Assembly (NCBI RefSeq): GCF_058153355.1
Contig: NZ_CM177019.1
Reading direction: 5' to 3' (one strand)
Length of the DNA: 64,000 bases
Below are positions 3,290 through 30,115 of this stretch, one piece after another. How positions within the stretch are numbered: position 1 is the first letter of the stretch; the number at the start of each line of letters is the position of its first letter. The notes beneath the pieces are model-generated. The model had not been told where the DNA came from, ran no database searches, and was given only the letters and a program-made list of their open reading frames with translations. Both the position numbers and the translations under genes were made by a program.

Positions 3290-4603
<1,314 letters not shown>

Positions 4604-6638: not shown

Positions 6639-6796
6639 CATTATTCCTCAAATTACGTCACTCCCGACCGGGAGCTCCCTCTACTCTCTATTCCAGGCTA
6701 ATAATCAGCTTGAGGAAAGAAGAAAATACTGAATTTTCAGTTACCAGATTGCCGGATGCGACGCTACCGCGCCTTATCCGGCATACGATGCATTAA

Positions 6797-27610: not shown

Positions 27611-28035
27611 ATCCCCTCCAGAAATATGTGACTTATCCTTTACGCTGGCAGTATAACGGGAAAGGCCTTGCTAATACGTGATGACATCACATTTAAGCAT
27701 GGCAAATGTCTGAAAAATGAGCGAATAATCGCGTTATACTCCCTCTTGCTGATAAGTCTGCAAAAACAACAAAATCAAATAATTAGCATGATAAATTATT
27801 TTTTATTACGCCTAAAGGATTAAATCTTTTGCTTGCACTACACTGTCAATCAGACAAATGACTATATGGGGCAACCCGCTGTTGCCCTAAATCAAATTTA
27901 CTGGATTTATTTATCTGGTGAATGACTCGCCTTCGTTTTTAAAATAGCCGCGCATTATTTCCGTCGTCACTTTTTTACGACGCCCCTATAAAACGACCAT
28001 ATTTTTCACAGGGTCAATTTTTAATTGAGGTGGAT

Positions 28036-28731
28036 ATGTTCAGAAAATTAGCAGCTGAATGTTTTGGTACTTTCTGGCTTGTTTTTGGTGGCTGTGGTAG
28101 TGCCGTACTGGCCGCAGGCTTCCCGGAATTAGGCATTGGTTTTACCGGCGTAGCGCTGGCATTCGGTTTAACCGTTCTGACGATGGCCTTCGCTGTTGGT
28201 CATATTTCTGGTGGTCATTTTAACCCGGCGGTCACTATTGGCTTATGGGCTGGCGGACGTTTTCCGACAAAAGAAGTCGTTGGCTACGTAATTGCCCAGG
28301 TTGTCGGCGGTATTGTTGCAGCGGCGCTGCTGTATTTAATTGCCAGTGGTAAAACGGGTTTTGACGCGGCAGCCAGCGGCTTTGCTTCTAACGGTTATGG
28401 CGAGCATTCACCAGGCGGTTATTCCATGCTTTCCGCGCTGGTGGTTGAACTGGTATTGAGTGCAGGTTTCCTGCTGGTGATCCACGGCGCAACCGACAAA
28501 TTCGCTCCGGCGGGTTTTGCACCAATTGCCATTGGTCTGGCATTAACCCTGATTCACTTAATCAGTATTCCGGTGACTAACACTTCTGTTAACCCGGCGC
28601 GCAGTACTGCGGTTGCCATCTTCCAGGGCGGCTGGGCGTTAGAACAACTGTGGTTCTTCTGGGTAGTGCCAATTATCGGCGGTATTATCGGTGGTCTGAT
28701 TTACCGGACTCTGCTGGAAAAACGTAATTAA
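28036..28731 (+). CDS. aqpZ: Aquaporin Z
   Basis: ORF track starts at GTG 28030; the ATG at 28036 gives [19 protein letters not shown]; two NPA motifs. Confidence 0.95.
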
Positions 28732-28741
28732 TTAACGCAGA

Positions 28742-28769
28742 AGGCCTGGCGCAATGTCAGGCCTTTTTT
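28742..28769 (+). terminator. Rho-independent terminator after aqpZ
   Basis: AGGCCTG-loop-CAGGCCT hairpin followed by T6. Confidence 0.65.
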
Positions 28770-29215
28770 AAATATATTGATTCATCTTCCTGTTGCGCTC
28801 CTTGATGTGTTAAGCCACATATAGTCACTGGCGCAGGGAGCGCGCAGGGGGCGGCCAATCGCCGCCGCCCCCTGCACCCCCGGGCTCTGGCGAACAAAAT
28901 CGCCGCTGCGCGGTGCCCTCGACTTATCCCTTGCGGCTACCGGGTCGGGCGCGAGGTAACATCCCGGTAAAACGCGCCCTCAGCCCACATCCATGTGGGC
29001 TGCCCCGGCCTTCAGGGAACGCCTCGGCGATTTTGACGCCACCAACACCGGTGCGGTTTGTAATTAAAGCGCAAGAATATCTTTAAATGAAAATGAATAC
29101 CCTACCGATCCTTATGCATAACATTTCCTTTTAATTGCAACTTTACTCGTCCTTCCGCTTTCAGTAGTGTGTCATCGCGCATTTCGACTTCTTTCTTTGC
29201 AAGGACTGGTTTTTC

Positions 29216-30115
29216 ATGTTTTCTGGGCTGTTAATCATTCTGGTTCCCCTGATTGTGGGTTACCTCATTCCGCTTCGCCAAAAAGCTGCATTAAAAGTTA
29301 TTAATCAGCTATTAAGTTGGATGGTTTACCTCATTCTCTTTTTTATGGGTATCAGTCTGGCGTTTCTCGATAACCTCGCCAGTAACCTGTTGGCGATTCT
29401 GCATTATTCCGCCGTCAGTATTACCGTTATTTTACTGTGTAATATTGCCGCACTGATGTGGCTGGAGCGAGGCCTGCCGTGGCGCAACCACCATCAGCAA
29501 GAAAAACTCCCGTCACGTATTGCGATGGCGCTGGAGTCCCTCAAGCTCTGCGGTGTGGTGGTGATTGGCTTTGCTATTGGCCTTAGCGGATTAGGTTTCT
29601 TACAACACGCTACGGAAGCCAGCGAATACACGTTAATTCTGCTACTTTTCCTCGTCGGTATTCAGTTGCGCAATAATGGCATGACCTTAAAGCAGATTGT
29701 CCTTAATCGCCGGGGAATGATTGTCGCCGTGGTGGTGGTTGCCAGTTCATTAATTGGTGGTTTAATTAACGCCTTTATTCTTGATCTTCCCATCAATACC
29801 GCGCTGGCAATGGCATCCGGTTTCGGCTGGTATTCTCTTTCCGGTATTTTATTGACCGAATCTTTTGGTCCGGTAATCGGGAGCGCGGCGTTTTTTAATG
29901 ATTTGGCCCGTGAGCTGATTGCTATTATGTTGATCCCTGGGCTGATTCGCCGTAGCCGCTCGACTGCACTGGGCTTATGCGGTGCAACCTCGATGGATTT
30001 CACCCTGCCCGTTCTTCAACGTACTGGCGGGCTGGATATGGTCCCGGCGGCGATTGTTCACGGTTTTATTCTCAGCCTGTTAGTACCTATCCTCATCGCC
30101 TTTTTCTCCGCGTAA
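29216..30115 (+). CDS. lysO: Lysine exporter LysO (YbjE)
   Basis: 299-aa polytopic membrane ORF in the conserved position. Confidence 0.9.
   Translation: MFSGLLIILVPLIVGYLIPLRQKAALKVINQLLSWMVYLILFFMGISLAFLDNLASNLLAILHYSAVSITVILLCNIAALMWLERGLPWRNHHQQEKLPSRIAMALESLKLCGVVVIGFAIGLSGLGFLQHATEASEYTLILLLFLVGIQLRNNGMTLKQIVLNRRGMIVAVVVVASSLIGGLINAFILDLPINTALAMASGFGWYSLSGILLTESFGPVIGSAAFFNDLARELIAIMLIPGLIRRSRSTALGLCGATSMDFTLPVLQRTGGLDMVPAAIVHGFILSLLVPILIAFFSA

Follow-up and report, generated by a model that had tools for sequence, protein, structure and literature searches.

The chromosome of E. coli carries a family of intergenic repeats named TRIP1, which was catalogued in 1999 and for which five locus-specific types and repeat-mediated rearrangements have been described (Li et al.). 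The copy known as TRIP1a was placed 31 bp past the aqpZ terminator (Li et al.). The same DNA has since been studied as the Replication Risk Sequence (RRS), with the copies RRS-lysO and RRS-dusC named in Pham et al. (NAR 2023, 2024) and Kusi-Appauh et al. (bioRxiv 2026), and RRS has been equated with TRIP1 in the literature; the experimental papers are PMC10287960, PMC11194060 and bioRxiv 10.64898/2026.06.16.732529. RRS-lysO was defined as the region 168-389 bp upstream of the lysO start, and a G-quadruplex-forming (G4) 20-mer, GGGGGTGCAGGGGGCGGCGG, was described (PMC11194060). Published K-12 work has placed RRS copies on either side of the Ter macrodomain and found them to be conditionally essential, and single RRS deletions had no growth defect (PMC11194060). 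With the C strand, gaps were still reported in about two-thirds of encounters (bioRxiv 10.64898/2026.06.16.732529), which was counted against the G4 model. The polymerase block, the gaps, the loading of RecA and SSB, the conditional essentiality and the supercoiling effects are all known from the K-12 literature alone, and the RRS authors predicted the existence of 'widespread functional analogs'. Another described system of relevance is the TwoAYGGAY motif (RF01731; Weinberg et al. 2010), which shares the Rfam clan CL00106 with CsrB.

The locus considered here lies in a window of 64 kb, the term denoting the whole stretch of DNA analysed, between aqpZ (stop at 28731) and lysO (ATG at 29216), and the order ybjD/aqpZ/lysO/hcp is the K-12 order reversed. 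The first-pass annotation had noticed a GC-rich stretch of about 200 bp unlike its AT-rich neighbours, an impression borne out by composition: positions 28830-29040 have 66-69% G+C, and in 100-nt windows the G+C fraction is 0.64-0.73 across 28800-29049 versus 0.34-0.48 in the flanks, with 69.4% in the 222-bp RRS and 50.9% in the whole window. The copies can be aligned between about 28792 and 29057, with weaker similarity out to about 28770 and 29078, giving the element wider limits than the 28830-29040 initially proposed. The element is located directly 3' of the aqpZ terminator, and 168 bp of AT-rich DNA separate its end from the lysO ATG.

This GC-rich hairpin block is the already described E. 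coli TRIP1a, or lysO RRS, and no new element. It is identical to K-12 RRS-lysO at 218 of 221 aligned positions, and its position is the published one relative to lysO. In BLAST comparisons with the element, the K-12 aqpZ-lysO copy reached 95.3% over 296 nt, arms included, followed by the K-12 dusC copy (93.4%), the alx-sstT copy of strain ZH49 (90.6% over 267 nt) and a Pseudocitrobacter copy (87.5%). Additionally, the G4 20-mer has a single exact match in the window, on one strand only, with 0.01 matches expected by chance. The component features are given in Table 1.

Table 1. Coordinates of the features recognized between aqpZ and lysO (positions of the window).
Feature	Position	Strand	Description
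aqpZ intrinsic terminator (context, outside the element)	28741..28771	+	Stem AAGGCCTG/CAGGCCTT, arms 28741-28748 and 28758-28765 (100% complementary), 9-nt loop, then T6
Full TRIP1a repeat unit	28792..29057	.	Equals K-12 NC_000913.3 915016-915281; from BLAST against copies, multiple alignment with flanks and literature coordinates
Left-arm hairpin	28795..28843		GCGCTCCTTG / CAGGGAGCGC; partly beyond the 222-bp RRS, within TRIP1a and the 'extended RRS'
RRS-lysO, 222-bp Replication Risk Sequence	28827..29048	- (published 'RRS-G4' strand)	From identity and position
12-bp perfect G+C hairpin	28844..28875		Arms 28844-28855 and 28864-28875; 8-nt loop CAATCGCC
Published G-quadruplex-forming 20-mer	28862..28881	-	GGGGGTGCAGGGGGCGGCGG; exact match, 0 mismatches
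18-nt direct repeat, left copy	28878..28895	.	CCCCGGGCTCTGGCGAAC
TwoAYGGAY-like core module	28895..29035	-	Closed by the long stem P1
P1 closing stem	28895-28910 and 29020-29035		Arms of 16 nt, 88% complementary; absent from the first-pass annotation
Core hairpin 2	28947..28979	-	Outer stem GGGCGCG/CGCGCCC, 19-nt interior UUUUACCGGGAUGUUACCU
Core hairpin 1	28981..29002	-	Reads CAGCCCAC-AUGGAU-GUGGGCUG
18-nt direct repeat, right copy	29003..29020	.	CCCCGGCCTTCAGGGAAC

An 11-bp stem (28844-28854 with 28865-28875) had been proposed previously; the hairpin does exist, but its length had been underestimated, since its arms form 12 perfect pairs. It was rejected as an intrinsic terminator because no T-run follows it: the adjoining bases are ACCCCC when the plus strand is read and GCGCTC when the minus strand is read. 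Because one of its arms lies inside the G4 20-mer, this hairpin and the G-quadruplex are mutually exclusive on the minus strand, a competition that was counted against the G4 model. The second hairpin, formerly called near-perfect, is a perfect 10-nt palindrome pairing 28981-28990 with 28993-29002. The 18-nt direct repeats bracket a core of about 125 bp that is missing in short forms of the element, which occur at three loci and in which one repeat copy is kept and roughly 28882-29002 is gone. At the other side, the GGAGCGCAA end of the left-arm hairpin is conserved in all copies, those of Klebsiella included.

The predicted folds are far more stable than those of shuffled sequences. As single-stranded DNA, positions 28827-29048 gave -71.4 kcal/mol (z = -6.26) on the G4 (minus) strand and -69.9 kcal/mol (z = -5.29) on the plus strand, and as RNA, positions 28825-29060 gave z = -5.04 on the minus strand and -3.58 on the plus strand; in each of these four runs, none of 200 dinucleotide-preserving shuffles matched the native fold. 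Consensus scans of 28600-29300 on both strands returned no promoter-like site and, with a loop limit of 8 nt, no terminator-like site; the aqpZ terminator was missed because its 9-nt loop exceeds that limit, and the scans carry little information on a possible RNA. Open reading frames within the element (57 aa on the plus strand and 46 aa on the minus) were set aside, as was a 'hypothetical protein' annotation that covers the ZH49 copy, since indels and the 125-bp deletion among the copies disrupt the frame.

The strand relationship with replication was deduced indirectly from composition, the origin and terminus being outside the window. The plus-strand GC skew is negative in 11 of 15 windows of 8 kb (cumulative -0.51), and therefore the minus (G4) strand corresponds to the lagging-strand template. 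K-12 synteny agrees with this orientation, placing the G4 strand on the lagging-strand template as in the published assignments: in K-12, this strand is '+' at lysO in the right replichore and '-' at dusC in the left replichore, in agreement with PMC11194060. According to the model developed in K-12, when the replisome unwinds the site, the minus strand carrying the G-rich 20-mer would briefly become single-stranded as lagging-strand template and could fold into a G-quadruplex and/or hairpins. Such a fold would block the lagging-strand polymerase, so that the Okazaki fragment would be abandoned, leaving as much as about 2 kb of gap on which SSB and RecA would be loaded; the RRS authors proposed that this transient gap may relieve topological stress, like a valve, close to the border of the Ter macrodomain. 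The same replication-gap behaviour would be expected in this strain, and the hairpin fold presumably contributes alongside the G4. The biology of RRS would be unusual in that a chromosomal sequence is selected so that the replisome leaves a gap. Overall, the region very probably represents RRS-lysO/TRIP1a as a conserved chromosomal DNA element with the gap mechanism described in K-12, rather than a gene or a leader of lysO.

The copy number, which the first-pass annotation had proposed to check, shows that the element is repeated: it occurs in 5425 of 5426 complete E. coli genomes, at a median of 3 places (range 1 to 10), confirming the earlier suggestion of a different class of intergenic repeat, here the multi-copy and already named TRIP1/RRS family. 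No second copy exists within the 64-kb window, and the partner RRS near dusC lies outside it. From K-12, the copies next to dusC and putP were recovered, and the genes that other copies follow (putP, dusC, alx, copA) are unrelated, with both orientations represented. In other natural strains, the aqpZ-lysO locus carries inverted, shortened or internally deleted versions, and in one strain the element is both inverted and shortened; these alleles, together with the dusC partner outside the window, were counted against the RRS explanation. One K. pneumoniae chromosome carries it at about 13 dispersed places, in unrelated convergent intergenic sites, which fits poorly with a simple picture of one pair flanking Ter. 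In genome contigs, a scan with GGCGATTTTNACGCCACC returned at least 120 matches, mostly chance occurrences in GC-rich genomes; real copies among the matches listed were found in L035, L048, L049, L060 and L110. A two-loop pattern in metagenome contigs retrieved two TARA contigs, which provided the marine TwoAYGGAY members discussed below, and no E. coli. The REP consensus GCCKGATGCGRCG, allowing at most 1 mismatch, matched four times in the window (including 6751, 47048 and 47078) and nowhere within 28770-29080, as the first-pass annotation had observed. In Klebsiella, REP-like sequence adjoins the copies and is found within none of them.

The comparison of stems across species also proved informative, since compensatory changes in Escherichia, Pseudocitrobacter and Klebsiella keep the fold, and the element is clearly neither single-copy nor devoid of conserved pairing. 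With a consensus fold derived from 8 copies, an alignment of 15 copies (Escherichia, Pseudocitrobacter, Klebsiella and one marine contig) had 95.1% of cells paired, and 26 of 52 pairs had changed on both sides, counts that lean towards the model structure because the alignment was fitted to that structure and the sequences are related. The 26 double-changed pairs were reached in 0 of 500 shuffles, and controls with the structure slid along the alignment gave at most 8. In helix 1 (P1), 95.7% of cells were paired and 9 pairs had both members substituted. The loop of core hairpin 1 is invariant in all 15 copies, and compensatory changes in its stem occur in TRIP1d, Klebsiella, a second Pseudocitrobacter element and the TARA contigs; in hairpin 2, the mini-stem covaries from AU to GC in Klebsiella (pair 82/91). 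Read on the G4 strand, G-U pairs (42 cells in 13 columns) outnumber A-C pairs (12 cells in 4 columns), which points to the G4 strand as the folded one. Additionally, the copies L132 and L136 of Klebsiella aerogenes have matching substitutions that preserve the 12-bp stem, L132 reading GAGGG/CCCTC and L136 having a single G-T wobble, but interrupt the G5 runs, suggesting that the hairpin, rather than the G4, may be the conserved feature. Such compensatory evolution around invariant loops is an argument that the fold is under selection.

A permissive Rfam search found no family at threshold in the element, and weak matches to miRNA, cow-rumen-3, SpF03 and HOTAIR families were treated as chance. 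The match to RF01731 (28897-29036, minus strand) scored 26.4 bits, below the gathering score of 43. However low, TwoAYGGAY ranked first among Rfam families in each of the long copies and always on the same strand (26-37 bits; 26.1-36.6 bits for the other long copies), with all E. coli copies below 43. Members passing the threshold were found in Pseudocitrobacter, 83 bp from an RRS copy (L035:2180-2332, 49.2 bits), and in the marine contigs L128 and L129 (46.3 and 46.4 bits), which have the 8-nt loop in common with the RRS core and a 19-nt interior identical to the K-12 form (...ACAGGGAUGU...) within different stems. In the reciprocal direction, R1, a covariance model built only from RRS cores and run on a search space of 806 kb, retrieved these three sequences at 34.0-34.6 bits, with rough E-values of 3.7e-5 to 5.2e-5; short TRIP1 forms scored 24 bits and unrelated background at most 16 bits. 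Loop 1 is AUGGAU, an exact AYGGAY; loop 2 reads CGGGAU in this strain and AGGGAU in K-12, both of which keep GGAY and lose AY. By these model scores, the RRS core qualifies as a sub-threshold relative of TwoAYGGAY, a link that holds in both directions of the search; no paper joining RRS to TwoAYGGAY was found in the literature. It is conceivable, though we consider it the less probable outcome, that the RRS core is an enterobacterial branch of TwoAYGGAY, with the hairpin fold, beyond the G4, functional either way. If so, the TwoAYGGAY motifs of gut Clostridia and marine gammaproteobacteria could be DNA elements programming replication gaps and not sRNAs or, alternatively, RRS could double as a CsrA-type RNA or be read by a loop-specific factor. 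The link would provide RRS with relatives outside the enterobacteria and an orphan motif with a candidate function, and the Klebsiella variants with intact hairpin and broken G-runs are in line with the hairpin being the functional part.

Among the rival explanations, one holds that the element or its 140-nt core is a minus-strand RNA of the TwoAYGGAY class, acting as a CsrA-dimer sponge or a 3'-UTR element, and a DNA role may coexist with it. The CsrA SELEX consensus is RUACARGGAUGU, and the GGA loops of the two hairpins, ACAUGGAUGU and UACNGGGAUGU, resemble it and stay invariant while the stems covary. The minus strand of the element has only 4 GGA, far under CsrB, in which roughly 18-22 are found. 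Given this count, the lack of a promoter-like site on either strand and the absence of a CsrA-target flag for dusC and ybjE (lysO) in Supplementary Data 2 of Potts et al. 2017 (columns for CLIP-seq, co-purification (Edwards), sequence prediction (Kulkarni) and crosslinking (Sowa)), a CsrB/CsrC-type sponge is not supported. The consistent top Rfam match, the Pseudocitrobacter neighbour, the marine members and their retrieval by R1 all favour an RNA of this class, as does the clan shared with CsrB, and CsrA binding by TwoAYGGAY RNAs was suggested in the RMfam paper; this binding is a proposal only, and the E. coli copies stay below the gathering score. For the dusC and alx copies, the GGA strand has the same sense as the upstream gene and would thus lie in its 3' UTR. 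At the locus under study, on the other hand, it is antisense to both aqpZ and lysO, so that the structured RNA initially suggested has as its sole Rfam resemblance an antisense, below-threshold match. Furthermore, since the GGA strand is the G4 strand, folding of single-stranded DNA explains the strand-specific covariation equally well, and we regard the RNA explanation as quite improbable. Far more doubtful is a plus-strand cis-regulatory leader, attenuator or riboswitch for lysO, or an aqpZ 3'-UTR element. The location between the two genes, the possibility in principle of read-through transcription and the plus-strand z of -3.58 would suit it, but the aqpZ terminator precedes the element, the AT-rich gap follows it, and no plus-strand Rfam family lies in it, the plus-strand matches in 28600-29300 falling outside at 19 bits or less. 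In addition, homologues follow unrelated genes in both orientations, the element is inverted or deleted at this very locus in some strains, and the excess of G-U over A-C pairs speaks for the minus strand. The lysO leader contemplated in the first-pass annotation is therefore not sustained, all the more as single deletions cause no growth defect.

A further explanation, akin to the mobile-element remnant raised in the first-pass annotation, is that the intergenic repeat is selfish or was once mobile, either as a MITE-like element or through recombination; its structure would then reflect its spread, with the replication effect as a by-product. The variable copy number in E. coli and K. pneumoniae is compatible with it, as are the inverted, shortened allele at aqpZ-lysO, the short forms at three loci and the types and rearrangements reported by Li et al. 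The copy at alx-sstT is present or absent, and K-12 lacks one there; simple insertion was nevertheless rejected, because K-12 holds a different sequence at that place and not an empty site. Escherichia copies end in a short, imperfect and weak terminal inverted repeat, TTGCGCTCCTT ... AAAGCGCAA, which speaks for past mobility, but it is absent from the Klebsiella copies, and no target-site duplication was found at any aligned copy. No transposase is associated with the element, and no match was found in the phage collection. All 34 matching records in the plasmid collection were typed as non-mobilizable, several are multi-megabase and those inspected contain chromosomal genes, so that they look chromosomal and provide no evidence of mobility. 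As compensatory evolution with invariant loops also stands against it, a selfish origin as the full explanation seems rather unlikely, and the conserved replication element RRS-lysO/TRIP1a is the preferred reading.

As TRIP1 was catalogued in 1999 and RRS-lysO has been under experiment since 2023, the finding itself is not new. The additions made here are a covariation-backed fold of RRS, a conserved hairpin over the G4, the exact junctions of the short and inverted alleles, the two-way link with TwoAYGGAY, and the Klebsiella and Pseudocitrobacter relatives of TRIP1.

Compared with the described systems, the closest is RRS-lysO of K-12, with which the element shares the locus, the length of 222 bp, the exact G4 20-mer and, by GC skew, the replication strand; the two differ by three substitutions, one of which falls in the second hairpin loop (ACCGGGAU for ACAGGGAU). 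As in the TRIP1a type (Rudd 1999; Li et al. 2024, types a to e), the element is downstream of aqpZ and upstream of ybjE/lysO, and, with a length of about 266 bp and 62-66% G+C, it belongs to the long form, with no difference of substance. With TwoAYGGAY, it shares a long closing stem around two adjacent hairpins, an identical first loop (CAUGGAUG) and GGAU in the second, and the E. coli element is multi-copy, as are the Psychromonas members. It differs from that motif in its extra G-rich hairpin/G4 arm and flanking arms, in a second loop of (A/C)GGGAU and in scores below 43 bits; moreover, TwoAYGGAY is catalogued as an RNA whose function is unknown, whereas the activity documented for RRS concerns DNA. 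The RRS authors name the pilE G4 of Neisseria gonorrhoeae as the only other known bacterial sequence in which a G-quadruplex triggers a replication-associated gap, although it has no sequence relation to RRS and serves antigenic variation, not chromosome topology. Finally, REP/BIME elements are likewise G+C-rich palindromic intergenic repeats of enterobacteria, often found after genes, but the element described here is about 270 bp long, adopts a multi-branch fold and is present in few copies rather than hundreds.

The GC-rich block between aqpZ and lysO is the known RRS-lysO/TRIP1a repeat and had already been described. The element located downstream of aqpZ and upstream of ybjE (lysO) corresponds to TRIP1a of Rudd 1999, the other family members being TRIP1b at putP, a short form without 125 bp, TRIP1c at yohI/dusC, TRIP1d at alx-sstT and TRIP1e at copA-ybaP (Li et al. 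2024, PMC10888264). The K-12 TRIP1b and TRIP1c copies were retrieved and confirmed. RRS was equated with TRIP1 by the RRS authors themselves (PMC10287960, PMC11194060), and RRS-lysO was defined as the DNA 168-389 bp upstream of lysO (PMC11194060). In the window, this definition corresponds to 28827-29048, nearly identical to the interval 28830-29040 singled out in the first-pass annotation, with 218 of 221 positions identical to K-12, and the published G4 20-mer GGGGGTGCAGGGGGCGGCGG has one exact match, at 28862-28881 on the minus strand. When several copies were aligned together with their flanks, the repeat unit spanned about 28792-29057, and weaker similarity reached about 28770 and 29078. 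The ybjD/aqpZ/lysO/hcp order is that of K-12 with reversed orientation. Separately, ybjX (K-12 b0877), which adjoins ybjD, is flagged among CsrA targets in both CLIP-seq and co-purification, and its expression drops in a csrA mutant (Potts 2017 Supplementary Data 2).

Features of the aqpZ-lysO region (window coordinates)
Feature	Coordinates	Description
ybjD		minus strand
aqpZ	28030-28731	
aqpZ terminator	28741-28771	upstream of the element
11-nt tandem duplication	28831-28852	left RRS edge; GCGCAGGGAGC / GCGCAGGGGGC
Hairpin 1	28844-28855 / 28864-28875	12 perfect pairs, 8-nt loop
18-nt direct repeat	28878-28895 and 29003-29020	two copies
Closing stem around the centre	28895-28910 / 29020-29035	16 nt, 88% complementary
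Hairpin 2	28981-28990 / 28993-29002	perfect 10-nt palindrome
lysO	29216-30115	
hcp		same gene series as ybjD, aqpZ and lysO

The first-pass annotation had been drawn from the sequence alone, and most of its description was borne out. The G+C content reaches 0.64-0.73 over 28800-29049, compared with 0.34-0.48 in the flanks (100-nt windows), the block lies after the aqpZ terminator as proposed, and the second hairpin is present; the first stem also exists, although it comprises 12 perfect pairs rather than the 11 reported. Likewise, the REP consensus, said to be absent from the element, has no match inside it, and matches elsewhere in the window at 6751-6763, 47048-47060 and 47078-47090; the two near 47.05-47.09 kb are on opposite strands, a BIME-like arrangement. 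Among the identities suggested, a different class of intergenic repeat was right, the element belonging to the multi-copy TRIP1/RRS family, whereas a lysO leader is not supported, since the element follows the aqpZ terminator and is separated from the lysO start by 168 bp of AT-rich DNA. Against dinucleotide-preserving shuffles, the fold z-scores were -5.04 (minus) and -3.58 (plus) for RNA over 28825-29060, and -6.26 (minus) and -5.29 (plus) for single-stranded DNA over 28827-29048, no shuffle folding as well as the element in any run on either strand. Short open reading frames cross the GC-rich element in the window (28913-29086, plus; 28757-28897, minus) and in a comparison sequence (L003:2950-3252), the ZH49 copy is overlain by a RefSeq 100-aa 'hypothetical protein' and one K. 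aerogenes copy is overlapped by an annotated 'Uncharacterised protein'; all of them are probably spurious.

On the copy-number question raised by the first-pass annotation, a search with a 241-nt query gave matches in 5425 of 5426 complete E. coli genomes, with a median of 3 and a maximum of 10 places per genome, so that the element is multi-copy across E. coli. Left arm, core and right arm are each individually repeated, no second copy occurs within the window, and the full alx-sstT copy of ZH49 shows 90.6% identity over 267 nt. No match was found in the phage collection; the plasmid collection gave 34, all typed non-mobilizable and several of them multi-megabase records. Whole chromosomes are filed there as plasmids, such as CP125156.1 (5.37 Mb), NZ_CP141089.1 (4.94 Mb) and NZ_CP134663.1 (4.90 Mb). 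Ten RRS-like places were counted in one E. coli record of this collection and 13 in the K. pneumoniae record CP125156.1, more than 'a pair flanking Ter', and the six Klebsiella loci retrieved all lie in different intergenic regions, so that a selfish repeat stays alive as an account of the element's origin.

Natural alleles were also observed. In short forms at three loci, one copy of the 18-nt direct repeat is kept and the DNA between the two copies is missing, which fits deletion between the direct repeats. At aqpZ-lysO, the L002 allele is inverted and shortened, without window 28886-29002 and with a single unit of the 11-nt tandem duplication, while in another strain about 70 bp are missing from the core. 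The records L002 (NZ_CP148327.1, 42 kb; inverted, short allele) and L004 (NZ_CP134387.1, 88 kb; 70-bp internal deletion) are labelled E. coli plasmids and carry chromosomal poxB-hcr-hcp-lysO-aqpZ-ybjD-ybjX; they may represent assembly errors, or chromosomal circles that were excised or amplified. The K-12 alx-sstT region (L125) has no TRIP1 copy and contains different DNA, with another palindromic repeat, CCCTCTCCCTTCCAGGGAGAGGG ... CCCTCACCCTAACCCTCTCCCC, in place of TRIP1d (3547-3740). In the sstT 5' UTR (3900-3925), the hairpin GCACCAGGGATGTGC lies a few bases upstream of the ribosome-binding site and looks like a CsrA-type GGA loop.

Comparison across species indicated that the fold is conserved among copies, as judged from their alignment. 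RNAalifold gave 52 pairs for eight long copies, and 15 copies (Escherichia, Pseudocitrobacter, three Klebsiella species and a marine contig) were aligned to a model of this fold, in which 95.1% of cells were paired and 26 of 52 pairs had changed on both sides, counts biased towards structure by the relatedness of the sequences and by fitting the alignment to the model. These values were not reached in any of 500 shuffles, and no more than 8 both-side-changed pairs appeared in slid controls. Stem swaps are also visible in the raw alignment, as CAGCCCAC/GUGGGCUG to CGACGCGC/GCGCGGCG in TRIP1d, with one mismatch, and GGGCGCG/CGCGCCC to GGGCGCA/UGCGCCC. On the minus strand, G-U pairs (42 cells, 13 columns) exceed A-C pairs (12 cells, 4 columns), which points to this strand, the published G4 strand, as the one whose fold is kept. 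One arm of the 12-bp hairpin shares bases with the G4 20-mer, which makes G4 and hairpin mutually exclusive. In K. aerogenes L132 and L136 (aligned to 28844-28881), GGGGG became GAGGG within the 20-mer and its partner CCCCC became CCCTC or CCCTT, preserving the hairpin (one G-T wobble in L136) and breaking the G5 runs; these paired changes suggest, short of proof, that selection acts on the hairpin.

The replication mechanism at RRS comes from the K-12 literature and not from the present sequence analysis. At both RRS sites in K-12, the G4 strand serves as lagging-strand template; in vitro it is a block to Pol I, II and IV, and it hinders M13 replication; RecA and SSB single-stranded DNA peaks begin at RRS and extend as a tail of about 2 kb along the lagging-strand template; ectopic copies behave in the same way; clean loss of both copies was impossible without a 200-kb amplification; and double deletion or inversion altered global supercoiling (PMC10287960, PMC11194060).

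Another reading is that the element acts as an RNA. The sole notable Rfam match, in permissive mode, was TwoAYGGAY (RF01731) at 28897-29036 on the minus strand, with 26.4 bits where the gathering score is 43; every long copy matches on the same strand (26.1-36.6 bits), a recurrence that is not independent evidence because the copies are homologous. TwoAYGGAY RNAs, known from Clostridia, gammaproteobacteria and gut metagenomes, have a large P1 stem, with at least 5 copies in both orientations in Psychromonas ingrahamii (Weinberg et al.), share clan CL00106 with CsrB (Rfam) and were proposed as CsrA binders (RMfam paper). However, an RNA role in E. coli is unproven: the E. coli copies score below threshold, the relevant minus strand runs antisense to both aqpZ and lysO, a search of the locus for a promoter-like site found none, and neither dusC nor ybjE carries a CsrA flag in Potts 2017. 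The papers searched on TwoAYGGAY, TRIP1 and RRS make no link between TwoAYGGAY and TRIP1/RRS.

A side result worth a test is the structural grouping of the RRS core with TwoAYGGAY, with independent support from three sources. In Pseudocitrobacter faecalis (L035, mdlB-glnK), an RRS/TRIP1 copy at 1859-2135 has beside it a second, diverged element on the opposite strand (2180-2400), whose TwoAYGGAY core, 83 bp from the RRS copy, exceeds the Rfam threshold (49.2 bits) and which has its own P1, GGAAATCGG...CCGATTTCC, and then a G-rich hairpin, GGGGCCGCGGGGATTGCGAAGGGGGGCGCGGTTGCCCCCC, a layout identical to that of the RRS minus strand. Two TARA ocean metagenome contigs also carry TwoAYGGAY above threshold (L128:2151-2277 and L129:258-384; 46.3 and 46.4 bits). 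R1, a covariance model built only from RRS cores, found these three elements at 34.0-34.6 bits in 806 kb (E about 4e-5, a rough value), unrelated background reaching at most 16 bits. The marine elements share with K-12 TRIP1a the CAUGGAUG loop and an identical 19-nt interior, UUUUACAGGGAUGUUACCU, whereas their stems differ, and after them comes a GGTTACTCTTTTTTAGCTGTAGAAGAAAGAGTAAC hairpin similar to that found next to the Psychromonas copies. The CsrA SELEX consensus is RUACARGGAUGU, which the RRS core loops resemble.
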